64,000 nt of DNA from Thermoanaerobaculia bacterium (GCA_963712855.1 CAVQJN010000002.1:804405-868404); one strand, 5' to 3'. Shown: positions 1,198 to 42,647, counted from the stretch's first letter. Numbers and translations are program-made. Notes: generated by a model not told the origin, from the sequence alone.

Positions 1198-2530
1198 ATG
1201 GCCGCCGCCACTGCGGGCCCCCGCCTCTACCGCCCCCGCCGGCCCGAGCGCACGGTGCTCTATCGGGCGCTCGCGGCCGAATTCGAGCGCTTTCTCGGGG
1301 TCTACGAAGACCGCTTCGAGCGGACCCACGGGTACTTCAGACGAGCGGTCGAAAAAGCCGTCTACAGATACCTGGACTGCGGCATCTTCGCCCACGGAGT
1401 CGCGCGGGCGCACTGCTCCGAGTGCGGGCACGACGTGCTCGTCGCATTCTCGTGCAAGCTGCGCTGCCTTTGTCCCTCCTGCCACCAGAAGCGGGAGCTG
1501 CTCTGGACGGAATGGGCGGCTGAGCTTCTCGCCGAGGTGCCCCACCGGCAGGTCGTCTTCACCATCCCGAAGCGGCTGCGGATCTACTTCCGCTGCGATC
1601 GCAAGCTCCTCGGTGAGCTTCCCCGGCTGCGCGTGGAGAGCAATCCGGCTCTACTTCCGGGCTTGGTTCGACGGCCAGCCCGTCGTCCCCGGCGCCGTCG
1701 GCTTCCTCCAAACGGCCGGCGAGCTTCTCGGCTGGCACCCGCACCTCCACGTGCTCCTGAGCGATGGCGTCTGGCTGACGGACGGCACCTTCCGCCATCT
1801 GCTCGCCTTCGACTCTTCCGCGATCGAGAAGCTCTTCCGCGCCGAAGTGCTGCGCCTGCTCGTCGCGCGAGGCAAGCTCTCGGAAGAGGTCGTCGCCAAC
1901 CTGCTCAGTTGGCACCACCCCCAATAAGACTGGGGGCGCAGCAGCGGGTTCTCGGTGCACGCCGGAGCCCCCGTCGACTCCCGCCCCGAGGCCGTTCGTC
2001 TCGGCCGCTACGGCATCCGCTGCCCGCTCGTGCTCGAGCGATTGAGCTGGGACGAGACCTCCGGCGAAATCGTCTACCGCGCCCGAGCCGGGCACCGCGA
2101 TGGCCGGGGCGACTGCGTGGCTCGCTGGGACGTCCTCGAGTTCCTGGCCCGGGTGCTCGATCACGTTCCGGACCCGGGCCAGCAGCTGCTGCGCTATTGG
2201 GGTTGGTACAGCAACGCGGCTCGCGGCCGGCGTGAGCGCGTCGAAGGCAGGGCGAGCGCTGCGCCCGCTGGCGATTCGGCCACCGATTCCGACGAGGTCG
2301 AGAGCCGCCGGCGTCGGCTCACCTGGTCCCAGCTCATCCGCAAGGTCTACGAGCTCGACCCGCTGCTCTGCCCCTACTGCTGCGGATCGCAGCTCGAGAT
2401 CGTCGCCTTCGTGGTCGACTGGGTCTCTCTCCGGCGCCTGCTAACCCACCTGGGCTTCGCGCCCCAACAGCCGGAGCCCCTCGCCCACGCGCCGCCCCAC
2501 GACGCGGAACCCCGCCGCGCTCACGCCTGA
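1198..2530 (+). pseudogene. IS91-family transposase (Zn-binding N-terminus plus HUH/Y2 core), disrupted
   Basis: The N-terminal Zn-finger region (HCSECGHDVLVAFSCKLRCLCPSCHQK) lies in the frame of ORF 1159..2235, starting from the ATG at 1198. The core with the HUH-like motif (GELLGWHPHLHVLLSDG) continues in the frame of ORF 1109..1927 after a shift near 1620. An in-frame TAA lies at 1925-1927. The C-terminal part ([12 protein letters not shown]...CPYC) is in ORF 1955..2530. Confidence 0.8.
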
Positions 2531-2568
2531 TCCGCCCGGCACGCTCCGGGTTCGCTCGAGCTCTGGCC

Positions 2569-2732
2569 CCCCTACGCTTCTCCCAACGGAATCTACAACC
2601 CGGCGATCAGCAGCCGTTCCGAGCCTGTCCTCGGCTAGTCCTCCCGGCTCGGTTCAACTCCAAGACGCCCCCGCACCGCGAACTCTTGACGGGTGCTACG
2701 CTCGCGCCAGAAAGCAATTTCCTACACGGTGA
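2569..2732 (+). repeat. IS91-like ori-end module, copy 1 (164 bp, hairpin segment deleted)
   Basis: It aligns with 8473-8680, 14233-14440 and 19901-20105. The 44-nt segment GAGAC plus hairpin that the other copies carry is missing between CCTACGC and TTCTCCCAAC (about 2577/2578). Confidence 0.85.
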
Positions 2733-2767
2733 CACGGTCGGTACACGGTACACGGTACACGGTGAGT

Positions 2768-3010
2768 GACGCCTCGCCGGCCGCCGACCTGTGGGCCGCG
2801 GTCAAGGCCGACACCTTGTCGCTCACCTCGTGGCAGGTCGGCATGTACGGCTGGATGGCCATCGCCACCTTCGCCATCTTCGGCCACCCCATCGACAAGA
2901 CCGGCCCGGTGTTCTGGTTCATGATGCAGATCGCCATGCTGTTCGGTTTTGCCACCGCCTACCCGGTCAACGCCTGGCTGATCAGGGTCGGCATCAAGGG
3001 GTCGATGTAG
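2768..3010 (+). pseudogene. 5'-truncated membrane protein fragment (DUF4396-like C-terminus)
   Basis: The tail of ORF 2693..3010 (KADTLSLTSWQVGMYGWMAIATFAIFG...FWFMMQIAMLFGFATAYPVNAWLIRVGIKGSM) resembles, from memory, the C-terminal half of DUF4396 proteins. No N-terminal part is present, and the ORF runs straight out of the IS91 ori end and the heptamer repeats. Confidence 0.4.
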
Positions 3011-3060
3011 CACTCGGCGGGCTCGGCCCGGTTCGGCTGCAACGCGGTAACAGCCGTCAC

Positions 3061-3432
3061 TCAGAACACCATGGCGTGATCCACCAGCCACTTGCCATCG
3101 ACCGGCACAAACACCGCTTCGGCCACGAACTCGTCCGTCGAGCGGGAGCAGGTCTGTTTCCACACCACCGCCACGGATGTGCTGCGACGGAACAGGGCGC
3201 GAAACTCGCGCGCTTCGAAGGTGCCGATGCGCTGCTGGTAGTCGGCGCACATCGCCTGCAGCCGTTCTGGCGTGACCATGGCGCGCATGCGTGCGGTGAA
3301 GTCGCGCGTGTGTCGGGCGTGGTCGATCTCGGTCGAGCCCTGCATCAGGTTGTCCATGATGGGCTCGACGATGGCGAGGATTTCCCGGTCGGACAGGTCC
3401 GCAATGGATGGCATGTTGAAGTCCTCCTGCAA
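3061..3432 (-). CDS. Hypothetical protein
   Basis: A 123-aa ORF with plausible composition and no motif I can name. An alternative start is MPSIADL at 3414. It lies in a co-oriented gene string with the VOC genes. Confidence 0.5.
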   Translation of the reverse strand: MQEDFNMPSIADLSDREILAIVEPIMDNLMQGSTEIDHARHTRDFTARMRAMVTPERLQAMCADYQQRIGTFEAREFRALFRRSTSVAVVWKQTCSRSTDEFVAEAVFVPVDGKWLVDHAMVF

Positions 3433-3439
3433 TGGCTGC

Positions 3440-3832
3440 TCAGTAGGCCGGTTCGCGCACCTGGAACACGTTGCCTTCGGGGTCGTAGCCGTCGCATGCA
3501 GTGAAGCCGCGCGCCTGCCACTGCTTTTCCGCGCCGCCTATTTCGCCGCCCAGCAAGGCGGCACGTGCGCGCGCCGCTTCGATGCTCTCCACCGGCAGGC
3601 AAACCTTTATCGGCATTGCGTCGCGGACACGCGGCGGCGTGGTGATCTCGATGCTGTCGGCAATCTTCTTCGGGATGCCGTGCAGCACCAGCTGGAAGTG
3701 GCCACCGTCGAGCACGACGTGCGCGCGGTCACCGTGCACCTCGACCATGTCCACCACCTCCCGGTAGAAGCGGGCCATCTTTTTCACGTCCTTGGCGAAC
3801 ACCACGGCGCTGGGTTTGGGCTTGTCGCTCAC
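3440..3832 (-). CDS. VOC (glyoxalase/bleomycin-resistance/dioxygenase) family protein
   Basis: A 130-aa ORF of VOC-like size and pattern (VVFAKDVKKMARFYREVV..., C-terminal GYDPEGNVFQV). It overlaps the next VOC gene by 4 nt. Confidence 0.65.
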   Translation of the reverse strand: MSDKPKPSAVVFAKDVKKMARFYREVVDMVEVHGDRAHVVLDGGHFQLVLHGIPKKIADSIEITTPPRVRDAMPIKVCLPVESIEAARARAALLGGEIGGAEKQWQARGFTACDGYDPEGNVFQVREPAY

Positions 3833-4206
3833 TCGCTTTCTCCTTCAATGACCTGGCCAATGTCGATCTGGTTGCCATCCGGGTCGGCAACACGGAAATC
3901 GCGCAGGCCGTAGTGGCGGTTGCCGATGGGCACGACGATGTCCGCGCCGGCCTGGACCATGCGCTGGTGCCAGGCATCGATGCCGGATACGCGGATGCTG
4001 GCGCGCGAGGGCCCGGCCGGGCGGGCATCGGCGCGCTGTGCAAGCGTGATTTCCACCGCATCCCGGCATATCGATGCCAGGGTGGCCGGCTCGCCCCATG
4101 TCCAGGCGACGTCGAAACCCAGTGTGTTCTGGTAGAACTGCAAGGCGCGGGACAGGTCGTGCACCCCGAACACGGGCGAGATCGATTCAAGTGTGGTCTG
4201 TGTCAT
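3829..4206 (-). CDS. VOC family protein, bleomycin-binding-protein-like
   Basis: SPVFGVHDLSRALQFYQNTLGF...YGLRDFRVADPDGNQIDIGQ is the typical glyoxalase/bleomycin-resistance fold signature. Confidence 0.7.
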   Translation of the reverse strand: MTQTTLESISPVFGVHDLSRALQFYQNTLGFDVAWTWGEPATLASICRDAVEITLAQRADARPAGPSRASIRVSGIDAWHQRMVQAGADIVVPIGNRHYGLRDFRVADPDGNQIDIGQVIEGESE

Positions 4207-4362
4207 GCCGCTTTCTCCGTGGAAATGATCGTCGTTGCCGGCGTCAGCCTGTGCTCGGGCGACGGCACCCAGTGCTCCATTTCGCTGATGGCTGGCAGGG
4301 GCATCGTGCTGGCCTTTTTCATGGATGGGGTGCTCCTTGCCAGCAGTCTTGCTGCAGGCCGT

Positions 4363-4839
4363 TCAGCTCTGGCCGTCATCGGTTTCATCCTGGCGCCCGA
4401 TGTCGATCAGGAGTGCCAGCGTGCGCCGGGTCGTGCTGACCGCCTGCTTGCCTGCGCGGGTGATCAGCTCGGCATCAATCGCGTCGCGCGCGCGGGTCTG
4501 CGCCACGGCCGCGGCCCGGCCACGATCGGTCAGGGTCACGTTGAGCCTGCGTCGGTCATGCGGGTCCACGCTGCGCTCGAGGTAGCCGCGCGTGACCAGG
4601 GTGTCGACAAGCTGCCCGGCGGCCTGCTTGGAAATGCGCAACTGGCGGATGAGCTGCCCCAGCGGCACATCCGCGTCGTCCATGGCCAGGCCGCCGATGA
4701 GATACAGGCCGTTGCCGGGAATGTCGTCGTAGCCCTCGGCTTCAAGCGCGCGGCGCATCGCCGTGCCGTAGGTGCTGCGTGCGTGCCGCAGCAGAGCAGG
4801 GGTGGTGACGCGTTCGTATCGGGGCAGGTCGTCGGACAT
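4363..4839 (-). CDS. MarR family transcriptional regulator
   Basis: A winged-helix segment, QLIRQLRISKQAAGQLVDTLVTRGYLERSVDPHDRRRLNVTLTDRG, is the classic MarR pattern. Confidence 0.8.
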   Translation of the reverse strand: MSDDLPRYERVTTPALLRHARSTYGTAMRRALEAEGYDDIPGNGLYLIGGLAMDDADVPLGQLIRQLRISKQAAGQLVDTLVTRGYLERSVDPHDRRRLNVTLTDRGRAAAVAQTRARDAIDAELITRAGKQAVSTTRRTLALLIDIGRQDETDDGQS

Positions 4840-4967
4840 GGGGGAATAAAGTCAATTAGATTGATAGTCAATATACAGGACTAAATTGGCATGTCAAGCC
4901 CTGTGGCGCCACGGGCGCCACAATCAGGCCACCGCGATCAGTTCAGATCACTTGCCCCGCTCTCGGC

Positions 4968-5402
4968 TCAGGCATCGTCGCCCGTCAGGAACCGGACCTT
5001 GCCAATCCATCCCCGCTGGCGTCGCGCCAGGCGCTCCTCGGCGGTTTCCTGCGCAAAGCTTGCCGGCGCATGCTGCAACAGGGCCGGGTCCACACCATCG
5101 AAGGCATGGACGCTGACCACGGCGTACACACGGCCTTCGATCTCGGAGGTGACGACCGGCACCACACCGCAGCGGCGGCAGACGTGGAACTGGGCGGTCC
5201 GGGTGTCGAATGCATAGCGCGATACCTGCGCCGAGTCCCGGACCATGACCTCGAGCGTGCCCGAGGGGCAGGATGTCCAGACACCGCCGTGCTTCGTGCA
5301 GAACGAGCAGGTGCAGGCACGCGCCGGAATCGTGGTCGGCTCGGGCTCCCAGGCCAGGGTGAACGCAATAGTGCCGCAGTGACAGCTTCCCTTGATCAGC
5401 AT
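4968..5402 (-). CDS. GFA (glutathione-dependent formaldehyde-activating/CENP-V-like) family protein
   Basis: MLIKGSCHCGTIAF...CTCSFCTKHG...CRRCG matches the Cys-rich GFA pattern. The start is taken at the internal ATG at 5402 (plus strand reads cat at 5400-5402) rather than at the ORF-track start 5468. Confidence 0.7.
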   Translation of the reverse strand: MLIKGSCHCGTIAFTLAWEPEPTTIPARACTCSFCTKHGGVWTSCPSGTLEVMVRDSAQVSRYAFDTRTAQFHVCRRCGVVPVVTSEIEGRVYAVVSVHAFDGVDPALLQHAPASFAQETAEERLARRQRGWIGKVRFLTGDDA

Positions 5403-5480
5403 GAGCGGTTTCCTCGTTTTATCGGGCAGCGAGTCCCGCGCAACGCGTTGGGACTGCAGCCCCCGCAAGCGTGATGCTAG

Positions 5481-6282
5481 GGCCTGTTAACACTACCGAA
5501 GAGATTCTACGACGAGCGCAAAGCATAGGAAGGCCATGAACATGACGTCGAGCTTGTCGAATCGGCTGAAGATGCGACGAAAGCCCTTGAGTCTTCGAAA
5601 CAGGCGCTCGATTTCATTGCGGCGACGGTACCAGGTCTTGCTGTAGGACCAAGGATGGGGGCGTGTGATCTTGGGCGGCACAACAGGGATAAGGTCCAGA
5701 TCCAAGGCGAGTTGCCGGGTTTCGAGGCCCTCGTAGGCCCGATCCATGATGAGTCGACATCGCTTCGGTAGCTCCGGCAAAGTGCGGAGCAACTCGCGAC
5801 CCGCAGGAGCATCATGGGCTTGCCCCTCCGTCAGGGAGAACGCAATGGCACACCGAGCATCCGCGGCAACCATATGAATCTTGGTGGTCCATCCGCCGCG
5901 GGATTTTCCGATGGCTTGCCGGCCGTTTTTTTTAGAGCACCCGTGCCGTCGGGATGCACCTTGACGATCGTGCTATCCAGGCTGACCGCTTCGATCTTGA
6001 TCCGAACCAGCTGATGGCGCTGCATCTCTTCGAACAGGCGATCCAGCACTCCAGCTTTTGCCCAGCGGTTCATTCGAGTGTAGACCGTGTGCCAGTTTCC
6101 AAAGCGCTTCGGCAAGCCGCGCCACTTGCAACCGTGCTCCGCGACGTACAAGATCGCGTTGATCACTTGCAAGTTGCTGAGGCTGACGTTCCCGCGCTGC
6201 ACCGGAAGAATGGCCTCGATGCGTCTGAACTGTGCGGCCGTGATCTCCATGCCGCTACGATATCACTTAGTGTTAACATGCC
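5481..6282 (-). mobile_element. IS5-family (IS427-like) insertion sequence, apparently intact, 802 bp
   Basis: The terminal inverted repeats are GGCCTGTTAACACTA (5481-5495) and TAGTGTTAACATGCC (6268-6282), matching at 14 of 15 positions. It is flanked by a direct CTAG at 5477-5480 and 6283-6286, a target-site duplication typical of IS5-type elements. Confidence 0.85.
5493..6250 (-). CDS. IS5-family transposase, OrfA/OrfAB via programmed -1 frameshift
   Basis: OrfA is ORF 5831..6250 (MEITAAQFRRIEAILP...GCKWRGLP). OrfB is ORF 5493..5873, extended upstream (KKNGRQAIGKSRGGWTTKIHMVAADAR...DRAYEG...NEIERLFRRLKGFRRI). The two frames overlap at an A8 run on the minus strand (T8 at 5926-5933). Frame arithmetic fits a -1 shift. 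Confidence 0.8.
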
Positions 6283-6636
6283 CTAGCTGGCAGAGGTCGT
6301 TCCCTTGCGCGGGCGCCGGCGTGCCCTGGGCTTGGGCGCCGGCAAGGCTGCCGAGGTGGCCAGGACAAGCGCCTGCAGTGCATCGACGTCGTCCAGCAGT
6401 TCATCGGCAACCGGGTAATCCTTTGCGCCCGGATAGGGCGGACCCAGGGGCAGGTCCGGTGCCAGGGTCTCCGTGGCTTTGGTGGGTTTGACAAACAGGC
6501 TGTTGTCGCAGACCAGCGCGACCACCTTGCCGTCATGGTACAGCGCGTATTCGCCAAACATCTTGCGGCAACTGAGCGCGTCACCCAGCCCGGCCTGTTC
6601 AAGTACATAGTCGACAAAGTCGCTGTCTGTTGCCAT
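6283..6636 (-). CDS. TfoX N-terminal domain protein
   Basis: MATDSDFVDYVLEQ...CRKMFGEYALYHDGKVVALVCDNSLFVK matches the TfoX_N pattern. The start is taken at the ATG at 6636. The stop codon (plus strand reads cta at 6283-6285) lies inside the CTAG target duplication of the IS5 element. Confidence 0.6.
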   Translation of the reverse strand: MATDSDFVDYVLEQAGLGDALSCRKMFGEYALYHDGKVVALVCDNSLFVKPTKATETLAPDLPLGPPYPGAKDYPVADELLDDVDALQALVLATSAALPAPKPRARRRPRKGTTSAS

Positions 6637-6748
6637 GTCAGATTGCCTCTCCGGCTGTTTGAACCCCATGGTAGCCGGTTGCTTTCATCGCACCAGGCAC
6701 CAGACGCGCAGCAAGGCGGCCCTTGCAGGCGATCAGCCGGCCATGTAC

Positions 6749-7360
6749 TCAGGCGACGCTGCGCGCCGCCACGCTCAGGGCCACCGTGACATTGGCGCTG
6801 GCGTGCAGCAGCCACGGCCCGAGGATCGAATGCGAACGGGTCCTCAGCCAGCCTGCAAACAGCCCGCCGACCAGCACCAGCGGCAGCACCATCCAGATCG
6901 ACGGCATGACCAACAGCACCAGCACATGCGGCGCCAGAAACACCAGCGCCTGCAGCAGGTTGGCCCAGATCAGTGGCAGCCGCCGGCCCAGGCTGCCGGC
7001 AATGAGGCCGCGGAACAGAAACTCCTCGGCAAAACCGGTCTGCAGCACGCCGTACAGCAGCGCCATGACAACAGCGGGAATGCCAAGCCCAAGCCCGGCA
7101 AAGGACGCAAAGCCGGAGCCCCTGGCGGTGGAGCTTGCCAGTGACGGCGGAAACACCAGCAGCGCCATGACGAGGACGACGGCAGCGACAGCCGCATAGC
7201 CGAGATAGCGCGGGTCACCCATCTGCAATCCGGCTCGCCGCGTCACCTCGGCAAAACGGCGGCCGTGCCGCCAGCGGTGATCGCCGTAATAGACGCCCAG
7301 CGGAATCACCACCAGGACCACGACATTCACAAGAGCAGACATCAGGGCTTGGATCAGCAT
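6749..7360 (-). CDS. CPBP family intramembrane glutamic endopeptidase (CAAX protease/Abi-like)
   Basis: A multi-TM protein with the EEFLFRG motif and downstream His motifs (LAPHVL, LLHASAN). Confidence 0.75.
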   Translation of the reverse strand: MLIQALMSALVNVVVLVVIPLGVYYGDHRWRHGRRFAEVTRRAGLQMGDPRYLGYAAVAAVVLVMALLVFPPSLASSTARGSGFASFAGLGLGIPAVVMALLYGVLQTGFAEEFLFRGLIAGSLGRRLPLIWANLLQALVFLAPHVLVLLVMPSIWMVLPLVLVGGLFAGWLRTRSHSILGPWLLHASANVTVALSVAARSVA

Positions 7361-7426
7361 GACGGGATCTCCTTGGTACGTGTTGCAGCCTGGCCGAGCC
7401 GGGTATGCCCGGCGCAGCTCAGGGCC

Positions 7427-7798
7427 TCAGCGATGCTGGTCGATCAGCACCGGGTTGCCGTCCGGGTCGACCAGGGTGATGTGTTCCGGGCCCGTGCTGT
7501 CGGTATCGGCCTCGCGGGTCAGCTCTATGCCGCGCGCCTTGAGTTCACGCTGAATCTCGCGCACATCGGTAAACGGATCCTCCGGCTGCGCATTCTTGCC
7601 CCAGCCGGGATTGAAGGTGAGCATGTTGCGCTCGAACATGCCCTGGAACAGGCCGATGGTATGGCCGCGGTTGCGCAGCACCAGCCAGTTCTGCTCCTGG
7701 TCGCCGCCGGTGACCTCGAAACCGAGCTTCTCGTAGAAGGCGCGCGACGCGGCAATGTCCTTGACGGCCAGACTGATGGAAAAGGCACCAAGATTCAT
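7427..7798 (-). CDS. VOC (glyoxalase) family protein
   Basis: [29 protein letters not shown]...[13 protein letters not shown]. The start is at the ATG at 7798 (plus strand reads cat at 7796-7798). The upstream part of ORF 7427..8071 is antisense to the IS91 fragment. Confidence 0.7.
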
Positions 7799-7980
7799 GA
7801 GTTTCTCCTGTGTGGGGGTGTTGCAGGGCAGGTCAGGCGACCTGCCCGGTGGGTGGCAGCCAATCAGGCCGAGGTGAACTTCGTGCCGTTGTCGACGCGG
7901 ATCCCAGCCCGGGAAGGTGCCACCCGATTTCCTGAATTCTCCGAATTTTGCATCCGGCTTGGCTTTGCGCCAGCCAAGTC

Positions 7981-8680
7981 CTACCGCGCCCGAGCCGGGC
8001 ACCGCGATGGCCGGGGCGACTGCGTGGCTCGCTGGGACGTCCTCGAGTTCCTGGCCCGGGTGCTCGATCACGTTCCGGACCCGGGCCAGCAGCTGCTGCG
8101 CTATTGGGGTTGGTACAGCAACGCGGCTCGCGGCCGGCGTGAGCGCGTCGAAGGCAGGGCGAGCGCTGCGCCCGCTGGCGATTCGGCCACCGATCCCGAC
8201 GAGGTCGAGAGCCGCCGGCGTCGGCTCACCTGGTCCCAGCTCATCCGCAAGGTCTACGAGCTCGACCCGCTGCTCTGCCCCTACTGCGGATCGCAGCTCG
8301 AGATCGTCGCCTTCGTGGTCGACTGGGTCTCTCTCCGGCGCCTGCTAACCCACCTGGGCTTCGCGCCCCAACAGCCGGAGCCCCTCGCCCACGCGCCGCC
8401 CCACGACGCGGAACCCCGCCGCGCTCACGCCTGATCCGCCCGGCACGCTCCGGGTTCGCTCGAGCTCTGACCCTCCTACGCGAGACGAGCCGGGCAGCGG
8501 CCGTTCCACGTCCGCTGCCCGGCTCTTCTCCCAACTGAATCTACAACCCGGCGATCAGCAGCCGTTCCGAGCCTGTCCTCGGCTAGTCCTCCCGGCTCGG
8601 TTCAACTCCAAGGCGCCCCCGCACTGCGAACTCTTGACGGGTGCTACGCTCGCGCCAGAAAGCAATTTCCTACACGGTGA
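7981..8680 (+). mobile_element. IS91-family element, partial copy B (last ~455 bp of the transposase gene plus ori-end module)
   Basis: It is near-identical to 2074-2732 of copy A, with homology starting at CTACCGCGCCCGAGCC. The truncated transposase reading frame ends at 8434. The 5' two-thirds of the gene is absent. Confidence 0.85.
8473..8680 (+). repeat. IS91-like ori-end module, copy 2 (208 bp, with hairpin)
   Basis: It starts CTCCTACGCG and ends TTTCCTACACGGTGA. It carries a perfect hairpin, GAGCCGGGCAGCGG (8487-8500) / CCGCTGCCCGGCTC (8512-8525), with an 11-nt loop. Confidence 0.9.
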
Positions 8681-9120
8681 CCGCTCGCGGAAGGTCCGGC
8701 AGTCGGCCGAGCGCGAGAGGGCCGATGACCTGCGTGACTGCCTCGTGGCGCACAAGTCCATGGTCCCCGACCGTTCGACGGGCGAATCCGACGACACGTC
8801 GGGTGACCCGGCAAATCCGGACGCCGAATCGAGCCCGGAACGGCGCAGCCGGGAAGAGCGCTGGCGGCGCGCCCAGTCCGCACTCGATCCCGAGCTTCCC
8901 GCGGATCCCGAGTCGCGGCGCTGACGGGGATCTCGCGCACGGCCCACCTCACGGGCCCTCTCGAGTGTCCGAGGGCGTCGCAGACGGACGAGTGAGACCG
9001 CGGACCCGCTTCCGGGTCGGTCCGGAGCGACACGAAGCTCCGGCCCGGAGCTGCTGCGATGATCGGCCGCCGCTCGCGCCGGCCTGGTCTCCGTGCCGCG
9101 TTTCGGGATAATCGGGCGCC

Positions 9121-11763
9121 GTGACCGATTCCAACGAGTCGGCCACCCGCGACGGCGACGTCCTCGGACGGCTGGCCGAGTGGGTGGCCGAAGGCCGGGC
9201 GGTGGACTGGGAGCGGGAGCTCGCGGCGGCGCCGGCGCTCGCCTCGCAGATCGCGAGCCTGCGCCGGCTGGCAGAGCTCGCGGGCGAGCTCGGCGAGATC
9301 CACCCGGCTGACGTGCCGCCGGGCGATCGGGCACCGGAAGCAGCGGACGACCGGGCTCCGCGGACATGGGGACACCTGCGGCTGGTCGAGGAGATCGGCT
9401 CCGGCGGCTTCGGCACCGTCTACCGCGCGTTCGATCCGGTGCTCCAGCGCGAGGTCGCGCTCAAGCTGCGCCGCGAGCGCCCGGGTGAGGCCGCGGCCGC
9501 GGCGCGCGAGTTCATCGACGAGGCGCGGCTGCTGGCCCGGGTGCGCCATCCGCACGTGCTCGGCGTCCACGGCGCCGACGTCCACGACGGGCGGGCCGGC
9601 CTGTGGGCCGACCTGCTGCGCGGCGTCACCCTGGAAGACGAGCTCGGCGGCGGTGCGCCCTTCCCGCTGGCGCGCGCGCTCGCAATCGGCGAAGCGGTCG
9701 CCGACGCGCTGACGGCGGTCCACGCCGCAGGACTCGTCCACGGCGACGTCAAGGGATCGAACGTTGCCTTGGAGCCGGGCGACCGGCCGGTGCTGATGGA
9801 CTTCGGCGCCGGCACGGACTTGCGACAGCCGCCGGCGGGCGCCGTCTTCGCGTCGCCTCTCTCGGCCGCGCCCGAGCGGCTGGCCGGCAGGCCGCTCGCG
9901 CCGCCCGCGGACGTCTACGGGCTCGGCGTGCTGCTCTTCCGGATGCTCGCGGGCGGTCGCCACCCGGTCGAGGCGCGCAACCTCTCCGAGCTGCTCTCCC
10001 GGCAACATCGGCGGGAGGCGGGCACCGAGCGCCTACCGCAGGTCGCGGCGCCGCGCGCACTGCGCCGTCTCGTTGCCCGGATGCTCGCGCCGCGGCCAGA
10101 GGCGCGTCCCACCGCGGCGGAGACAGCGGAGCGGCTACGCTGGATCGCCGCGGCTCCGGTGCGTCGCCGCCGCCGGCTGGCGGTGGCCGCGGTGATGGCG
10201 AGCCTCGCGCTGGGCACCTTCGCCGCAAGCGTCGGGCTCGTGCGGGCGCGACGGTCGGCGGCGGCGGCGGAAGCGGCACGTGCCGAGACGGCCGCGGTCA
10301 ACGACTTCCTCACCCGGGTCCTGGCTTCGCCGCGCCCCTCGCAGAGCGGGCGCCAGGTGCAGGTGGTGGACGTCCTGCGCCAAGCCGAGGAGCGCGTCGA
10401 CGCGCTGCCCGCCGGCTCGCCGATCCAAGGCCGGCTGCTGGCCGTGATCGGCACCACCTACTCCGCGCTCCAGAAGTTCTCCCGGGCCGAGCCGCTTCTC
10501 GCGCGCGCGACCTCCGTGCTGGAGACCAGCGCCGGGGCGCGCAGCCCCGCCGCGCTCGAGGCGAAGGCCGAGTGGGCCGTCGCGCTGGAACGGGACCAGA
10601 AGCTAGCGGAGGCGGCAAGACGAGCCGCCTCGGTGGTCGCCGCCGGCCGCAGCCTGCGGAACCCGGTCCCCGGGGGCGTCGTCCTGGCGCAGCTCGTCCT
10701 GGCTCGCGTGGTCGAGGACCGCGGCCACCTGCCGACCGCCGAGCGCCTGGTCCGCGTCGCGCTCGCGGCCCGCTCCGGACCCCGCTGGGCGGAGGACCGC
10801 ATGCGCCTCGAGGGAGAGCTCGATCTCAGTCGGATCCTGCTCGACGAGAACCGTCCGGGCGCGGCGGTCGGCGTTCTCCAACCGCTGATCGAACGCTTGC
10901 AGGTGACCCACGGCGAGCGCAACGGCATCGTCCTGCACGCCCTGAACAACCTGGCTGTTGCGCTCTCGACGCTCGGACGGTACGAAGAGGCGGCGGACCG
11001 GTTCCGGCAGCTCTACGAAGAGACCTCGGCCTGGCTCGGCCCGGAGGACCGCTACACGCTGTTGTGCGGGAACAACCTCGGTGCGGCGCTGCGCGACGCG
11101 GGACGTCCCGACGAGGCGGCCCAGCTCGAGGAGCGGCTGATCCCCGAGGCCGAGAAGGCCTTCGGTCCGGATACCGACATCGTCCTCAACCTCCACTTCA
11201 ATCACTGCCTGACTCTGCGCCAGGTCGGCCAGCTCGACGCTGCACGCGACTGCAACGAGAAGATCGCCGCGCGACTGGAGCGGGTGTTCGGTCCGGACCA
11301 CTGGTACACCCTGCTTCACGGCGTCAACCGGGCGGAGCTGGATCTCGAGACCGGGCGCACGCAACGGGCCTTGGCCGAGTCGCGCGACACGTGGCGCCAC
11401 GCCGCCGCGACCTTCGGCGCCGAGCATCCGCTCACGCTCGCCGCGAGCACGGTGCTGGGGGCGGCGATGGCGGCGAGTGGCGAGACCGAAGCCGGCATCG
11501 CGCGGCTGCGCAGCACACTGGCGAGCCAGCGCAAGGCGTCCGGCGCCGCCGATCAGCAGTCGCTGCTCACCGAGCTGCGACTCTCCCGCGCCCTGCGCGC
11601 CGCCGGCAGCTCCCAGGAGGCGGCGGCGCTCGCCCGCGAGGCGCTCGACCTGGCGATCCCGGCGCTCGGCCCGCAGCACCCCCTGGTCGCCGACTTGCGC
11701 CGCGAGGTCGCTCACTCCGCGCCGGCGCCGGACGGCGCCGACCCGGGGATAGGCTCGCGCTGA
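9121..11763 (+). CDS. Ser/Thr protein kinase with a C-terminal TPR-like region (non-RD: HGD catalytic loop)
   Basis: It carries a Gly-rich loop (IGSGGFGTVY), VALK, the catalytic loop LVHGDVKGSNV and MDFGAG. One TM segment (LAVAAVMASLALGTFAA) is followed by about 480 aa of helical repeats. The start is a GTG at 9121. Confidence 0.85.
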   Translation: MTDSNESATRDGDVLGRLAEWVAEGRAVDWERELAAAPALASQIASLRRLAELAGELGEIHPADVPPGDRAPEAADDRAPRTWGHLRLVEEIGSGGFGTVYRAFDPVLQREVALKLRRERPGEAAAAAREFIDEARLLARVRHPHVLGVHGADVHDGRAGLWADLLRGVTLEDELGGGAPFPLARALAIGEAVADALTAVHAAGLVHGDVKGSNVALEPGDRPVLMDFGAGTDLRQPPAGAVFASPLSAAPERLAGRPLAPPADVYGLGVLLFRMLAGGRHPVEARNLSELLSRQHRREAGTERLPQVAAPRALRRLVARMLAPRPEARPTAAETAERLRWIAAAPVRRRRRLAVAAVMASLALGTFAASVGLVRARRSAAAAEAARAETAAVNDFLTRVLASPRPSQSGRQVQVVDVLRQAEERVDALPAGSPIQGRLLAVIGTTYSALQKFSRAEPLLARATSVLETSAGARSPAALEAKAEWAVALERDQKLAEAARRAASVVAAGRSLRNPVPGGVVLAQLVLARVVEDRGHLPTAERLVRVALAARSGPRWAEDRMRLEGELDLSRILLDENRPGAAVGVLQPLIERLQVTHGERNGIVLHALNNLAVALSTLGRYEEAADRFRQLYEETSAWLGPEDRYTLLCGNNLGAALRDAGRPDEAAQLEERLIPEAEKAFGPDTDIVLNLHFNHCLTLRQVGQLDAARDCNEKIAARLERVFGPDHWYTLLHGVNRAELDLETGRTQRALAESRDTWRHAAATFGAEHPLTLAASTVLGAAMAASGETEAGIARLRSTLASQRKASGAADQQSLLTELRLSRALRAAGSSQEAAALAREALDLAIPALGPQHPLVADLRREVAHSAPAPDGADPGIGSR

Positions 11764-11768
11764 ACCCG

Positions 11769-12332
11769 ATGCCGGAACCCTCGCTGACCTCCACCGCGAC
11801 CCTCGTCCGGCGGTTGCAGTCCGGGGACGACGGAGCGCGCGACGAGCTGGTCGAGCGCTGCCTGCCGCTGCTGCGGCGCTGGGCGCACGGCCGGCTGCCC
11901 GGCTACGCGCGCGATCTCGCGGACACCGACGACCTGGTCCAGATCACCTTGCTGCGCACGCTGAAGCGGCTGCCCTCGATGGCGACGGGCGAGAGCGGCT
12001 CGTTTCTCGCCTACATGCGCCAGGTGCTGCTCAACGAAGTCCGCGACGAGCTGCGTCGCCGCGTGCGTCGGCCCCGGATCGAGCCGCTGCCGGAGGAGGA
12101 CTCCGCGGCACCCCAGCCGCTGGCGACGGCGCGCGACCCGATCGTCTTCGCCGACTACGAGCGGGCGCTGGGGGCCATCACCCCGGCGCAGCGCGACGCC
12201 GTGGTCCTGCGTTTCGAGTTCGGCATGACCTTCCCCGAGATCGCGCTCGAGCTCGGCTTGGCTTCGGCCGCAGCGGCCCGCATGCGCGTCGCCCGCGGCC
12301 TGGCCGACATGGCGCGCGCCCTGGCCGGATAG
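11769..12332 (+). CDS. ECF-type RNA polymerase sigma-70 family factor
   Basis: The ATG at 11769 lies 5 nt after the kinase stop. Region 2-like (DDLVQITLLRTLKRL) and region 4 HTH (VLRFEFGMTFPEIALELGLASAAAARMRVARG) segments are present. It is read from the tail of the long ORF 9603..12332. Confidence 0.8.
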   Translation: MPEPSLTSTATLVRRLQSGDDGARDELVERCLPLLRRWAHGRLPGYARDLADTDDLVQITLLRTLKRLPSMATGESGSFLAYMRQVLLNEVRDELRRRVRRPRIEPLPEEDSAAPQPLATARDPIVFADYERALGAITPAQRDAVVLRFEFGMTFPEIALELGLASAAAARMRVARGLADMARALAG

Positions 12333-12488
12333 CGGGCAGGAAGCCGCCCGCGTTCGGTTCTCCGCCCCTCCGTCGTGCTAGAGGGTGAAGACGGCGGGAA
12401 AGGGGGCCGGGAGATGGCCGGGAAGAGGGAATTCGTGCAGAAAGGCGAGCCGGGCACGGGCCGGGAGGAGCCCGGGGCGGACGGAGTC

Positions 12489-14138
12489 ATGGAACGCGAG
12501 GAGAAGCGGGACGGGGTGCGCAGGCGAGAGGTCGCCTCGAGCTCCCGGGTCCCGGAGCGCCGCGGCATCTTCGATCTGCGCCGGATCCTGCTCATCCTTC
12601 CCGTTGTGGCCCTGATTCTCGCGGCGGCTCCGGCCCGCTGCCAGGTCTGGGCGGTGGGCAACTACTTCTGGCAGGACTCTGGCGCGACGGCGTCCGACTT
12701 CCTCGGCTCGGCAGTGGCGGTGGGCGACTTCGACGGGGACGGGCGCCGCGACGACTTCGTCTGGGGCGAGCCCGGCGGCGACGACAGCGGTCTGGTCGCG
12801 GCGGGAATCGTCTGGGTCGGCCTGGGCGACGGGAGCCGCCACGTTCCCGCGTTGGTCGAGCTCGCCGACGAGCAGGCGGGGGCGCATTTCGGGCAGGCGC
12901 TGGCCGTGGGCGACTTCGACGGTGACGGCGCGGACGACATCGCCGTCGGCGCCCCTTACGAGGACGTGACCTACAGCGGCCAGAGCCGGCACGACGCGGG
13001 TGCCGTTCAGGTCTTCCACGTGGTGGGAGCGAGCGTGCTCCCGGAGCAGGTTCTCTCGCAGGCCGACGTCCCCTCGCTGAGCGTCCCCGAGGCCGACGAC
13101 CACTTCGGCTGGGCGCTCGCCGCGGGCAACTTCAACGGCGACTCCTACGACGACCTCGCCGTCGGCGTCCCCGACGAGGGCGTCGCCGGCGCCGAGGACG
13201 GCGGCATCGTCGAGGTCTTCTACGGCAGCAGCACCGGGTTGCGCCTGGACAACGCCGACGTCTACTACTTCTCTCCGCCGGCCGCTGGTGATCGCTACGG
13301 GTTCTCGCTCGCGTCCGGAGATTTCGATGACGACGGCAACGACGATCTGGCCGTCGGGATCCCGTTGAGGACCGTGTCTGGATCCGTCCAAGACGGCGAG
13401 GTGATGGTCTACGACGGGTCGGGCACCGGCCTCGTGCACTCGCCCGCGCACCTGATGTGGGAGGCGCTGTTCGGGCCGCCGAGTGAGGCGGGGGAGCAGT
13501 TCGGCTTCGCGCTCGCCGCCGGCCGGTTGAACGAGACGGTCCTCTCCTGCTTCTCGAGCTGCTACGACGACCTCGTGATCGGAGCGCCCTTCCGCACGGT
13601 GGACGGACAAGCCCAGGCCGGCGAGGTGCTCGTGGCCTACGGCTCGCCCGCGGGCCCGCTGACAGCAAACGGCGCGGTGCTCACCCAGGCGGACGCCGGC
13701 GCGACGCCCGGGGCGAACGATCTCTTCGGCGATTCGCTCGCCGTCGGCGACCTCGACCGCCCCGACAATTTCCTCTACGACATCGAGGACTTGACCGTGG
13801 GCGCGCCCGGCGAGAGCTACGGCGGCATCGCCTCCGCCGGCGAGGTCGAGATCTTCTTCGGCGCGTTCACCGGCCTGGGCGCCGGCGGGGCAACCCAGAG
13901 GATCGGTCCGTCGCAGGCGCTGCAGGTTGCGCCGCCGCTCGACTACGACTTCTTCGGTCTCGGGCTCGCCATCGGCGACCTCGACGGCGACGGTTGGGGC
14001 GACCTGATCGCCGGCGTTCCGGGCCGCGACGATGGCGCGATCCCCGACGTCGGAGGCGTGGAGGTCCTCTACGGCGCCCTGTTCGCGGACGGCTTCGGCG
14101 CGGGAGACACCAACTCCTGGCCGGTCGTGAATCCGTAA
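12489..14138 (+). CDS. FG-GAP/integrin-alpha-like repeat protein, secreted
   Basis: Repeated GDFDGDG / GDFDDDGNDDLAVG / GDLDGDGWGDL motifs follow FG-like segments. A hydrophobic signal-like segment is LLILPVVALILAAAPA. The start is uncertain; the ORF opens at 12375, with ATGs at 12414 and 12489. Confidence 0.75.
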   Translation: MEREEKRDGVRRREVASSSRVPERRGIFDLRRILLILPVVALILAAAPARCQVWAVGNYFWQDSGATASDFLGSAVAVGDFDGDGRRDDFVWGEPGGDDSGLVAAGIVWVGLGDGSRHVPALVELADEQAGAHFGQALAVGDFDGDGADDIAVGAPYEDVTYSGQSRHDAGAVQVFHVVGASVLPEQVLSQADVPSLSVPEADDHFGWALAAGNFNGDSYDDLAVGVPDEGVAGAEDGGIVEVFYGSSTGLRLDNADVYYFSPPAAGDRYGFSLASGDFDDDGNDDLAVGIPLRTVSGSVQDGEVMVYDGSGTGLVHSPAHLMWEALFGPPSEAGEQFGFALAAGRLNETVLSCFSSCYDDLVIGAPFRTVDGQAQAGEVLVAYGSPAGPLTANGAVLTQADAGATPGANDLFGDSLAVGDLDRPDNFLYDIEDLTVGAPGESYGGIASAGEVEIFFGAFTGLGAGGATQRIGPSQALQVAPPLDYDFFGLGLAIGDLDGDGWGDLIAGVPGRDDGAIPDVGGVEVLYGALFADGFGAGDTNSWPVVNP

Positions 14139-14232
14139 AGGCGGGGCAGTCGTCAGGGGACGGCTTCGAGCGCCGCGGCGAGCGTTGCGAGCCGGCGCGG
14201 GACCGCGGCGACCGTGTCGGCGTCGCGCAGGT

Positions 14233-14440
14233 CTCCTACGCGAGACGAGCCGGGCAGCGGCCGTTCCACGTCCGCTGCCCGGCTCTTCTCCCAACTGAAT
14301 CTACAACCCGGCGATCAGCAGCCGTTCCGAGCCTGTCCTCGGCTAGTCCTCCCGGCTCGGTTCAACTCCAAGACGCCCCCGCACTGCGAACTCTTGACGG
14401 GTGCTACGCTCGCGCCAGAAAGCAATTTCCTACACGGTGA
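14233..14440 (+). repeat. IS91-like ori-end module, copy 3 (solo, 208 bp, no transposase sequence attached)
   Basis: It matches 8473-8680 almost base for base, including the hairpin (14247-14260 / 14272-14285). The sequence left of 14233 is unrelated to the IS. Confidence 0.9.
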
Positions 14441-14634
14441 CCGCTCGCCTTGCCGAAGGCGGCGTCGATCGCGGGCGTCGTCGGCAGCTTCGAGCCGTCG
14501 AGGCCGACGTGGTCGTAGCGCAGGCAGTCGACGAGCAGCACGAGCACGCCATGGGGTGGCTTGGGCCGAGCTGGGGAGCAGGCTCCCGCGAGGAGCGCGA
14601 GGCCGCAGACAAGAGCGAAGGCGGAATTTTTCAT
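14441..14634 (-). pseudogene. N-terminal fragment of a sulfatase/alkaline-phosphatase-superfamily lipoprotein, truncated at the repeat edge
   Basis: MKNSAFALVCGLALLAGAC (a lipobox-like signal) is followed by GVLVLLVDCLRYDHVGLDGSKLPTTPAIDAAFGKA, the typical sulfatase N-terminus. The reading frame then runs into the module (SGHRVGNCFLARA) and stops. The rest of the gene is missing. Confidence 0.6.
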
Positions 14635-17038: not shown

Positions 17039-17677
17039 TTACGCCGCAAGAGCCCGGACGTCGAGCTCGGCAGCCACTTCTCCCACTTCTGCGCCACCCT
17101 TGGCATTCCGCCGACCACCGGGCCGCGGGGCTCGCTGCCGATGCTCCGGGATCAGCTCCAGCGGCTCTTCGCGTCGACCTTCCAGTGCATCTTCCACGAC
17201 GAGAGCCAGTGCCGCCACGCCGGTGACGGCTTTCTGATTGCCGAGAAGCGGGAGCTCTGGTGGGACCCTCGGCCGGGGAGAGGCGAGGCGGGATGGGGGT
17301 CCCGCGTCGTCCTCTCCGACCGGTTCTACCGGGAGGCGACCGAGGCGCCGGTCCCGCTCGACCTCCGAGTGCTCCGCGCCCTGCGCTCGCCCTTCGAGAT
17401 CGACATCTACGTCTGGCTGACGTGGCGTTTCTTCCGGCTCCGCAAGCCGGTGACGATCCCGTGGACGTCGCTGGCGCTCCAGTTCGGATCGGGCTACGCG
17501 AACCCGCGGCACTTCAAGAAGCTGTTCCTCGGCTACCTGCGCGGGGTCATCGACTACTACCCCGAGGCCCGCGTCCGGCCCAGTGAGAACGGTCTCCATC
17601 TGGTGCCCTCCGCCACGCACGTGGCGCCTCGTCGTTTGGCGATGAAGCCGCGACGAGATGAGAGGCCCCAGCCAGGT
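17039..17677 (+). pseudogene. Plasmid RepA_C-type replication initiator gene fragment (5'-truncated), copy 1
   Basis: The frame of ORF 17141..18016, extended upstream, reads ...ELGSHFSHFCATLGIPPTTGPRGSLPMLRDQLQRLFASTFQCIF...PVPLDLRVLRALRSPFEIDIYVWLTWR...ANPRHFKK. From memory this is the pattern of plasmid-encoded RepA (PF04796-like) proteins. There is no N-terminal half. Similarity to copy 2 ends at 17677, and the left boundary is approximate. Confidence 0.55.
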
Positions 17678-18461: not shown

Positions 18462-18502
18462 GCCGTGACGGTCGCGGCGAGCATCCCCGCCCCTCCCCCG
18501 AC

Positions 18503-18893
18503 GCCGAGCTCCTGGGTTGGCACCCGCACCTCCACGTGCTCCTGAGCGATGGCGGCTGGCTGCCGGACGGCACCTTTCGCCACCTGCTCGCCCTCGACTC
18601 TGCCGCGATCGAGAACCTCTTCCGCGCCGAGGTGCTCCGCCTACTCGTCGAAAGAGGAAAGATCTCCGACGAGGTGGTCGACAACCTCCTCTCGTGGCGC
18701 CAGAGCGGGTTCTCGGTGCATGGCTCGGTCCGCGTCGAGGAGCGCTCCGCGGCGGTGCGCCTCGGCCGCTACGGCATTCGTTGTCCGCTCGTGCTCGAGC
18801 GACTGTCCCGGGACGGGAACTCCGGCGAAATCGTCTACCGCGCCCGCCCCGGACACCACGATCGCGCCGGCGACCCCGAGGCTCGCTGGGACA
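18503..18893 (+). pseudogene. IS91-family transposase internal fragment (copy C, diverged)
   Basis: LLGWHPHLHVLLSDGGWLPDGTFRHLL...RLGRYGIRCPLVLERL...YRARPGHHD aligns with 1718-2115 of copy A, with scattered substitutions. Homology ends at GCTCGCTGGGAC (18893). Confidence 0.8.
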
Positions 18894-19785: not shown

Positions 19786-20105
19786 GCTTCGCGCCCCAAC
19801 AGCCGGAGCCCCTCGCCCACGCGCCGCCCCACGACGCGGAACCCCGCCGCGCTCACGCCTGATCCGCCCGGCACGCTCCGGGTTCGCTCGAGCTCTGGCC
19901 CTCCTACGCGAGAAGAGCCGGGCAGCGGCCGTTCCACGTCCGCTGCCCGGCTCTTCTCCCAACTGAATCTACAACCCGGCGATCAGCAGCCGTTCCGAGC
20001 CTGTCCTCGGCTAGTCCTCCCGGCTCGGTCCAACTCCAAGACGCCCCCGCACCGCGAACTCTTGACGCGTGCTACGCTCGCGCCAGAAAGCAATTTCCTA
20101 CACGG
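19786..20105 (+). mobile_element. IS91-family element remnant D (last ~75 bp of the transposase gene plus ori-end module)
   Basis: CTTCGCGCCCCAACAGCCGGAGCCCCTCGCC... aligns with 2455 onward of copy A and continues through the module to CCTACACGG at 20097-20105. Confidence 0.85.
19901..20105 (+). repeat. IS91-like ori-end module, copy 4 (205 bp, with hairpin)
   Basis: The hairpin arms are at 19915-19928 and 19940-19953. The terminal CCTACACGG is followed by CTTG and then a second CCTACACGG (20110-20118). Confidence 0.9.
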
Positions 20106-20154
20106 CTTGCCTACACGGCGACGATCCGGGGTCCGATCCCGGGAGGAGACGTCG

Positions 20155-21837: not shown

Positions 21838-21851
21838 GGCGGCAGGCCGCG

Positions 21852-22235
21852 TGGGGGTCGCACGTGGTGGTCTCCGACCGGTTCTACCGGGACGCGACCG
21901 AGGCGCCGGTCCCGCTCGACCTCCGGGTGCTCCGCGCCCTGCGCTCGCCCTTCGAGATCGACATCTACGTCTGGCTCACTTGGCGCTTCTTCCGGCTCCG
22001 CAAGCCGGTGACGATCCCGTGGGCGTCGCTGGCGCTCCAGTTCGGGTCGGGCTACGCGAACCCGAGGCACTTCAAGAAGCGGTTCCTCGGCTACCTGCGC
22101 GGTGTGATCGACGACTACCCCGGCGCCCGCGTCCGGCCCAGTGAGACCGGCCTTCAGCTCGTGCCTTCGGCCCCGCATGTGGCGCCTCGCCGTTTAGCGA
22201 TGAAGCTGCGACGAGGTGAGGGGCCCCAGCCAGGT
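21852..22235 (+). pseudogene. Plasmid RepA_C-type gene fragment, copy 2
   Basis: This 384 bp is colinear with 17294-17677 (WGSHVVVSDRFYRDATEAPVPLDLRVLRALRSPFEIDIYVWLTWR...). By eye there is roughly one substitution per 10 nt. The shared sequence ends at CCAGCCAGGT. Confidence 0.6.
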
Positions 22236-22435
22236 TGCATTCGCTTAAGGTCGTCTCAGGTTCGTCCATTTTGAGTCGTTTGAAGAAGACTGATCGATCA
22301 CCGGCTTGTCCGAACGGCTTCGAGACGGGCGGCCTGTTGCGCTGGAGCAGCGACTCGAACTGAGGAAATCGAGTCTGCGAGCCGGCGGGCTCGTCTCTCG
22401 GGCGTTTGCTGCGTGCTGACGAAGGCGCTGCGAAA

Positions 22436-22511
22436 TGGTGGAGCAGAAGGGATTCGAACCCTCGACCCCCACGTTGCGAACGTGGTGCTCTCCCAGCTGA
22501 GCTACTGCCCC
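22436..22511 (-). tRNA. tRNA-Ala(CGC): tRNA-Ala (anticodon CGC), CCA encoded
   Basis: The reverse complement folds by hand into a 76-nt cloverleaf: acceptor GGGGCAG/CTGCTCC with the G3:U70 alanine identity pair, D stem GCTC/GAGC, anticodon stem CCACG/CGTGG with loop TTCGCAA, and T arm GAGGG-TTCGAAT-CCCTT. Confidence 0.95.
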
Positions 22512-42537: not shown

Positions 42538-42647
42538 CAGCGCACCGAGCGTTGGGCGAGGTGGGCGGTTGGTGCAGGCGGAACTCCATCGCCCGGTCGG
42601 GAAAAGCCTAGAGACGGTCGCGCCGTCGAGTCAAGCGTCCGCCCGAT

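Follow-up and report, generated by a model that had tools for sequence, protein, structure and literature searches.

The stretch of DNA considered here is a window of 64,000 nucleotides (nt) from a Thermoanaerobaculia bacterium (GCA_963712855.1, CAVQJN010000002.1:804405-868404), in which four ends of a rolling-circle insertion sequence (IS) of the IS91/ISCR superfamily lie in a row and the first two of them bracket a block of genes from another phylum. Self-comparison of the window identified a direct repeat, 2074-2733 and 7981-8681, with ~99% identity over 656 nt, which is far above chance. What is repeated is the 3' (oriIS) end of an element of ~1.63 kb, whose first copy matches the Pfam families Zn_Tnp_IS91 (E 4.5e-19) and Y2_Tnp, split over frames. 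An earlier reading, made from the DNA alone (the sequence-only reading), had recognised this repeat together with two of the differences between its copies, namely an extra TGC/CTG at ~2377-2379 in copy 1 and a 44-nt hairpin segment (~8479-8522) that is present in copy 2 and missing from copy 1; the single substitution reported there has become seven.

Copy 1 (1144-2730, + strand) is a full-length but decayed element, 96.6% identical end to end to an intact copy found at three other loci (L011, L012 and L013). Copy 2 (7981-8678, +) is 5'-truncated: by comparison of the repeats it begins at IS position ~931, and it retains both the hairpin and an undamaged ori end. Copy 3 (14233-14438, +) is a solo ori module extending from the hairpin to the ori end, its IS part differing from copy 2 by one mismatch, and copy 4 (19786-20106, +) is a 320-nt ori-end fragment with the flank CTTGCC-TACACGG-CGAC. 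The length of element kept is thus ~1.6 kb, 701 nt, 216 nt and 320 nt, respectively. All four ori ends, located at 2729, 8677, 14437 and 20105, have the same orientation. Downstream of the transposase gene (tnpA) stop, copies 2-4 possess a subterminal palindrome with a 14-bp GC-rich stem (8478-8530, + in copy 2; predicted DNA fold -30.5 kcal/mol, z = -8.5), which copy 1 has lost.

L011-L013 share one intact copy of 1,634 bp whose transposase gene, of 434 amino acids (aa), is uninterrupted, and this copy fixes both ends of the element: the ter end begins TCGTAGCGCG, and the ori end reads ...AATTTCCTACACGG(T), also cited as ...TTTCCTACACGG. These ends are unlike each other and form no terminal inverted repeats which, with the subterminal palindrome, places the element in the IS91/ISCR superfamily; target duplications are absent at full copies (flanks GCAGCC|...|CGAGG and GACCA|...|TGAC). 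In this family the ori end lies downstream and the ter end upstream of tnpA, and the target tetranucleotide adjoins oriIS (PMC13181058). The tnpA pseudogene of copy 1 (1198-2530, +), when its translation is compared with the intact L011 gene, carries one additional nt (T) at 1619, a 24-nt palindromic insertion at 1918-1941 and three additional nt at 2377-2379. The 24-nt insertion, CCCCCAATAAGACTGGGGGCGCAG, contains a 6-bp inverted repeat and introduces an in-frame TAA. Copy 1 is complete but, judged by these lesions, dead.

Alignment of the L011 protein with the transposases of ISCR1, ISCR2 (ISVsa3), IS91 and a Trichlorobacter plasmid locates the HUH motif (HPHLH), and both its HxH and the catalytic Tyr are invariant. 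There is a single Tyr, in RLGRYGIRCP, which aligns with RLCRYISRPA of ISCR1 and ISCR2. IS91 proper has two catalytic Tyr, Y249 and Y253 (PMC5714925), but the YxxxY arrangement is lacking here, with Arg occupying the position of the first Tyr of IS91 (RLGRY versus VYFGSY). ISCR elements have one Tyr and are described as 'ISCR (Y1 Rep)' (PMC10288648). Pairwise identity amounts to 30% with ISCR2, 27% with ISCR1, 28% with IS91 and 40% with the Trichlorobacter plasmid transposase. By the single-Tyr criterion the element is ISCR-like, although its identity to ISCR1, ISCR2 and IS91 is no more than 27-30%. The closest annotated relative of the transposase (L021; 40% identity) is encoded on Trichlorobacter lovleyi plasmid pIAE1 (NZ_CP058410.1), and this relative matches 14 places in that single 290-kb plasmid; a related element has thus proliferated there.

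Outside the window, a 21-nt ori-end probe matched one Acidobacteria metagenome-assembled genome (MAG) among genome contigs and 13 metagenome loci. The ori-side flank starts with C in all eight distinct metagenome flanks and with CGA in four of them (five of nine if copy 4 is included), a sample too small to define a consensus; copies 1-3 of the window have T in place of this C. Other metagenomes contain solo ori ends that are 5'-truncated to 124, ~180 and 300 nt. The idea that truncated copies begin with a ter-like motif was rejected: TC is found at the start of several of them, copies 2 and 4 being exceptions. A further variant is seen at L008 (857-3059; also L003), which has the same ori end and right flank, CTACCATCGCC, as the uninterrupted form at L010. 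It contains an insert of 1,675 bp that encodes a 446-aa hypothetical protein and is bracketed by a 70-nt duplication of internal IS sequence ending inside the hairpin.

Within the array, successive ori ends are separated by 5948, 5760 and 5668 nt, values within 5% of one another; this near-equal unit length could reflect chance or a size limit on a rolling-circle intermediate. Copies 2 and 3 have in common the 11 nt that follow their ori ends, TGACCGCTCGC (8678-8688 and 14438-14448), and, with this shared flank included (to 14448), match over 216 nt at 99.5%. The next six nt of the copy 3 flank, CTTGCC (14449-14454), recur at 20106-20111 right after copy 4, followed there by a second TACACGG and then CGAC, and the flanks of copies 3 and 4 are ~74% alike over ~27 nt. 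Read as units, the blocks are flanked by short direct repeats of 4, 11 and 6 nt. A search by tblastx for an ancient tandem duplication of the four units gave compositional noise only between them. The right junction of copy 4 is confirmed by a short-read contig (L017).

The ~5.1 kb of cargo between copies 1 and 2 (2763-7876) is 97-98% identical at the nt level to one Rhodanobacteraceae-like contig (L001) and 86-96% identical to five others (L022-L026). Its gene order is as follows: a DUF4396 C-terminal (3') fragment (2693-3010, +), a 123-aa open reading frame (ORF), two VOC genes (3440-3832 and 3829-4206), MarR (4363-4839), GFA (4968-5468), an IS5-family element, TfoX_N (6283-6669), CPBP (6749-7360) and a third VOC gene (7427-7798), all on the - strand except the DUF4396 fragment. 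Pfam agrees with the genes named in the sequence-only reading, which had also rightly called the IS5-family element (5481-6282, -; Pfam DDE_Tnp_1 and DUF4096) intact. This element has inverted repeats, GGCCTGTTAACACTA, and a CTAG target duplication (5477-5480 and 6283-6286) of the 4-bp YTAR type; its empty site is visible in L001, so that the features of the IS5 family are all present. It is a clean insertion into the cargo at a later date, and its nearest plasmid relatives are IS5 elements of Burkholderiales (72-75%).

Several lines of evidence confirm that the cargo is foreign, with a Rhodanobacteraceae-like gammaproteobacterial donor and a Thermoanaerobaculia host. The cargo MarR protein is encoded residue for residue on L001, a contig in the ENA, where the same string of genes is found without the IS5 element and continues into TPP-enzyme and cytochrome o oxidase genes. 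Oxidase subunit I (CyoB) of L001 is 99% identical to a Rhodanobacteraceae MAG protein. Conversely, the named best hits of the window's Ppk1 are all from Thermoanaerobaculia/Acidobacteria (70-78%), and an Acidobacteria-typical VWFA family is also present in the window. The direction of transfer is settled by tetranucleotide usage, for which r is 0.88 between the cargo and the L001 flank and 0.50 between the cargo and the rest of the window, against 0.93 +/- 0.03 (minimum 0.84) for random native 4.3-kb pieces. The prediction that the nearest relatives of the block would lie in another phylum and that its composition would set it apart was therefore borne out. The block had also been described as visibly lower in GC, which is correct in direction and overstated in size, the values being 65.0% for the cargo without IS5, 57.7% for IS5 and 68.8% for the rest of the window; the 80% quoted for the outside is a local peak in a kinase block of 73.6% GC. 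At 97-98% nt identity, the transfer across phyla is recent.

No IS91-like sequence lies within 10 kb on L001, and a plasmid collection returned only weak gene-level hits to the cargo (DUF4396, 66-77%), with no plasmid vector identified. The donor region itself is modular: on L022-L025, ABM, B12-binding, GGDEF and SOUL genes come after the VOC-CPBP pair, which has 86-87% identity to that of the window, and take the place of the TfoX-GFA-MarR genes of L001 and L026. Positions 1-7771 of L001 form a stretch of low GC (54%). That units 2-4 of the array are foreign as well was rejected, as their tetranucleotide usage is host-like (0.87-0.92). Host-like composition characterises the blocks between ori ends 2 and 3 and ori ends 3 and 4 and the stretch after ori end 4, leaving the first block as the foreign one.

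With an uninterrupted donor version to hand, both edges of the cargo can be placed exactly. On the left, donor homology begins at TGAGTGAC (2763), inside DUF4396, a gene that is intact (218 aa) at the syntenic place on L001, as expected from the earlier proposal that this edge cuts the gene. The cargo starts 34 nt past the copy 1 ori end, on the oriIS side, which is where ISCR1 and ISCR2 carry captured DNA (PMC6218425, PMC7190383). It had been described as fused directly to that ori end; instead, the terminal heptamer of the element is repeated between them (2731-2763, +; read directly as G, ACACGGT, CGGT and ACACGGT three times), giving four full and one partial extra copies of ACACGGT, the last of which abuts the cargo. 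No such stutter is seen at the 13 metagenome ori ends. On the right, donor homology stops at exactly 7876 in all six donor-like contigs. Between this point and copy 2 lies an orphan segment of 104 nt (7877-7980) that is absent from all of these contigs; it had been taken for an integrase-like remnant, a view that is unsupported, as a Pfam scan of three frames and DNA and protein comparisons with the window and the loci gave no match.

The right-hand junctions have independent support. The short-read Logan contig L027 (run ERR11571143) equals window 8010-6257 at 100% identity; it runs from within the cargo through the 104-nt orphan into the first 30 nt of copy 2, and thereby covers both 7876/7877 and 7980/7981. 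The sequence-only reading had expected the right and left junctions alike to be continuous in one molecule; this held on the right, and the left (2729-2763) was not confirmed in short-read contigs by exact-protein look-ups with two versions of the DUF4396 fragment. Exact-protein look-ups for GT2 and the ECF sigma factor likewise found nothing. These data bear on the suggestion that the structure is an assembly chimera, in which a Rhodanobacteraceae fragment with the same IS was joined into an Acidobacteriota contig via the IS repeats. Donor-like Rhodanobacteraceae contigs are indeed present in related samples (L001, L022 and L026, from ERZ25039483), and the linkage of the left junction to host DNA is provided by the long contig alone. 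However, the source contig measures 2.23 Mb, suggesting a long-read assembly, and two switches within 6 kb would be required. Moreover, the junction of cargo, 104 nt and IS occurs in independent short-read contigs at 100% identity, and the cargo variant of the window, with IS5 and both edges truncated, is unlike all donor-like contigs. A chimera is thus highly improbable.

The left junction is also informative as to what is missing from it. To the left of copy 1 no 5' half of DUF4396 was found; it follows that the IS did not simply insert into the gene and that its junction with the cargo is one-sided. This observation weighs against decay in place, whereby the island was acquired otherwise, two IS inserted independently at its borders, and deletions then cost copy 2 its 5' part and DUF4396 its 5' half, along with neighbouring DNA. 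Such a history would suit a mosaic region that holds an IS5 element, a diverged tnpA fragment and duplicated RepA_C fragments, and truncated IS copies are common. Nevertheless, it calls for at least two insertions in the same orientation and at least two deletions ending exactly at the ori end and at an end-like site, and the co-orientation of all four ori ends is a further difficulty. Decay in place is consequently an implausible explanation, if not quite so implausible as a chimera. A direct view of the region without the IS array might have been gained from an empty site, but the beta-helix protein beside copy 4 has no relative above 40% identity, and no close genome showing such a site was available.

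Both donor breakpoints resemble the end of the element next to its target. In the donor their contexts are GCATTCACCCGA|TGAGTGAC and CAGGCCGCGG|TGGCACGC, and the sequences at the cuts, ACCCGA|TGAG and CCGCGG|TGGC, each match 7 of 10 positions of the IS end|flank ACACGG|TGAC in the same orientation; a score this high is reached at 0.47% of L001 positions. This resemblance favours cargo edges made by the transposase but should be regarded as suggestive only. According to published work, related elements copy from ori to ter and take up the DNA upstream of them when termination at ter fails (PMC3189936, PMC13181058); single- and double-stranded circles that join ori to the far end are formed (PMC13181058, PMC3189936). 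The ISCR-style capture put forward in the sequence-only reading survives in part: the oriIS-side cargo, the breakpoints and the one-sided junction are all in keeping with it. Read-through of a ter end, the first step of that proposal, does not fit the full copy: the ter of copy 1 is on the far side from the cargo, which lies beyond its ori end, so that read-through there cannot have recruited the cargo. Relative to copy 2 the cargo is on the ter side, but this copy lacks a ter, and a one-ended event from the copy 2 ori is thus the reading that needs the fewest events.

On this basis, a ter-less, one-ended rolling-circle capture from the copy 2 ori, with the unit placed after the ori of resident copy 1, is somewhat favoured here as the origin of the block. 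A transposase supplied in trans would nick at oriIS of the ter-less copy 2, and rolling-circle displacement would run leftwards through the adjoining foreign DNA until it stopped at the cryptic, end-like site within DUF4396 (ACCCGA|TGAG in the donor versus ACACGG|TGAC). The resulting unit of ~5.9 kb would then be set immediately downstream of the copy 1 oriIS, either by re-use of the resident ori|target cleavage site or by a crossover in the shared 0.66 kb. If it circularised, the unit is predicted to have the junction ...CCTACACGGT|GAGTGAC..., or in longer form ...AATTTCCTACACGGT|GAGTGACGCC. Re-use of the resident site would yield the observed order and orientation, with copy 2 inheriting the resident flank; a single crossover in the shared 0.66 kb would give an identical map, and the two modes of integration are accordingly inseparable on these data. 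The palindrome, the one-sided junction and the solo ori ends in other metagenomes were counted in favour of one-ended capture. Position-wise comparison of the copies found copy 2 close to the consensus and copy 1 degenerate, in line with copy 1 being an older resident and the incoming unit being younger. The array of four co-oriented ori ends would have arisen by the same process, or by recombination among those ends.

A number of observations sit less comfortably with this scheme. The window holds no intact transposase gene, and activity of the element in this genome is unproven. The left ends of copies 2 (7981), 3 and 4 lack a clear ter-like motif, the simple model accounts for neither the 104-nt orphan nor the heptamer stutter, and the motif test at the breakpoints was defined after the junctions had been seen. 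The 11 nt common to copies 2 and 3 lie beyond the IS end and indicate recombination or duplication, not clean cuts by the transposase. Bardaji et al. attributed most genomic IS801 fragments to rearrangement and not to one-ended transposition (PMC3189936). To these may be added the unconfirmed state of the left junction noted above.

Some of the same observations lend weight to a model in which integration was driven by homology only, which comes close to the rescue step of the sequence-only reading. Here, a plasmid, a fragment of an integrative and conjugative element (ICE) or another circle with an IS copy or fragment would have entered copy 1 by a RecA-type crossover in the 0.66 kb, and the cargo edges would stem from unrelated rearrangements. 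A single crossover gives exactly the final map observed, the 11 shared nt and the 1.7-kb insert of L008 with its 70-nt duplication look like recombination or template switching, and the RepA_C fragments and tRNA-Ala of the region amount to plasmid or ICE debris. IS801 fragments have also been argued to act mostly as recombination substrates (PMC3189936). Against this model stand the resemblance of both donor breakpoints to IS end|target sequence and the exact abutment of the last terminal heptamer and the cargo. In addition, variants private to copy 1 are spread along the entire shared segment, from 2288 to 2588, and comparison of the copies revealed no reciprocal mosaic of copies 1 and 2, the signature of a crossover. 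Homology-driven integration alone is therefore considered unlikely, although less so than decay in place. Recombination or template switching nonetheless appears to act on these ends too, judging by the 11-nt flank and the L008 duplication, in agreement with Bardaji et al. on IS801 (PMC3189936).

An extension of one-ended capture would treat the entire array as the product of serial, ori-targeted capture. Each unit of ~5.7-5.9 kb, with its truncated ori module last, may have been inserted at the ori|target cleavage site of the preceding copy or a few nt from it, and the outcome may be an integron-like array growing in one direction. Possible footprints of such insertion are the stuttered terminal heptamers and the short direct repeats (4, 11 and 6 nt) on either side of the units. 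As a further step, given that both donor breakpoints are like IS end|target, the resident HUH transposase may have cut a segment directly from incoming foreign single-stranded DNA, in which case the IS was never needed in the donor. Serial capture with this step included is a speculative proposal and quite unlikely to be correct as a whole.

A mosaic region with a tRNA-Ala at its end forms the setting of the array; found in it as well are two RepA_C fragments and the diverged tnpA fragment. The latter (18502-18892, +) is, by similarity to the element, an internal fragment (~79%) of a related IS91/ISCR-like transposase gene. The RepA_C fragments (plasmid replication initiator; 17141-17650 and 21720-22274) are N-terminally truncated and 90% identical over 300 nt, and the second abuts the 3' end of tRNA-Ala(CGC) (22436-22511, -). 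Together they suggest the remains of a tRNA-integrated plasmid or ICE, with the IS array within it. The block 8689-14232, which carries Ser/Thr kinase-TPR, ECF sigma and FG-GAP genes, is the kinase block referred to above; its GC lies ~5 points above the rest of the window, and its tetranucleotide usage is host-like (r = 0.91). Further along the window, a fluoride riboswitch (RF01734; 42521-42602, -) scores 34.6 bits against an Rfam gathering threshold of 34 and is located at the upstream end of a reading frame, 40759-42630 (-).

Toleman et al. (2006) reportedly worked on ISCR1 in complex class 1 integrons, the systems to which the sequence-only reading had likened the locus. There are common features: in ISCR1, too, the variable captured DNA follows the transposase gene directly, on the oriIS side (PMC6218425), the transposase has a single Tyr, and capture is proposed to proceed by way of an aberrant rolling-circle product and subsequent recombination. 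The likeness nevertheless fails at the bracket, which in complex class 1 integrons is the duplicated 3' conserved segment (3'-CS; qacEdelta1/sul1) and here is the 3' end of the IS itself. No sul1, qacE or intI-like ORF was found among the ORFs scanned in 1-22 kb, and ISCR1 has no recognisable terIS, whereas copy 1 has one. It should also be noted that ISCR transposition has never been demonstrated experimentally (PMC6218425).

An arrangement of ISCR2, cargo and (delta)ISCR2 is a closer parallel. The closest known structures are ISCR2 units such as ISCR2-abh-tet(X4)-ISCR2 and ISCR2-erm(42)-ISCR2-abh-tet(X4)-ISCR2-floR, units and arrays of which form circles (PMC7190383). Like these, the present locus has a few kb of cargo between copies of a Y1 HUH rolling-circle IS that share one orientation, several such copies stand in a row with different cargo between them, and the unit size of ~4.6-6 kb matches the circular form, that of ISCR2-abh-tet(X4) being 4.6 kb (PMC7190383). 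The systems differ in host (Acidobacteriota here, not Gammaproteobacteria), in cargo (small detoxification and regulator genes, not resistance genes) and in the downstream copies, which here are 5'-truncated to 0.2-0.7 kb. The element is, furthermore, only distantly related to ISCR2 (30% transposase identity), and circles, known for ISCR2, are here a prediction.

The one-ended products of IS801 and IS91 (PMC3189936, PMC13181058) provide a third comparison, as they too have a constant ori end and a variable other end, recruit ter-side DNA and make no target duplication; they also prefer a short target beside oriIS, as the present element may do. Right-end fragments of IS801 measure 229, 360 and 679 nt (PMC3189936), compared with 124-701 nt for the present element. 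Unlike IS91, the present transposase has one catalytic Tyr, not two; and unlike in IS801/IS91, the target looks like GAN/CGAN and not GTTC/CTTG, and the left ends of fragments have no clear ter-like tetranucleotide.

Nearly all known cases of ISCR-type capture involve resistance genes in clinical Proteobacteria. The kind of capture described here is thus already known, and what is new is an example at the level of junctions, across phyla, in the chromosome of an uncultured member of the Thermoanaerobaculia. The existence of an uninterrupted donor version allows both breakpoints to be read base by base, and provides concrete sequences for the pickup of ori-side DNA, namely the IS end ACACGG(C/T)|GAN and two cryptic sites. 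Further value attaches to three features of the array: its near-equal spacing, short flanking repeats and heptamer stutter. If the array reading is true, elements of this type would be able to stack cargo directionally outside the clinical setting.

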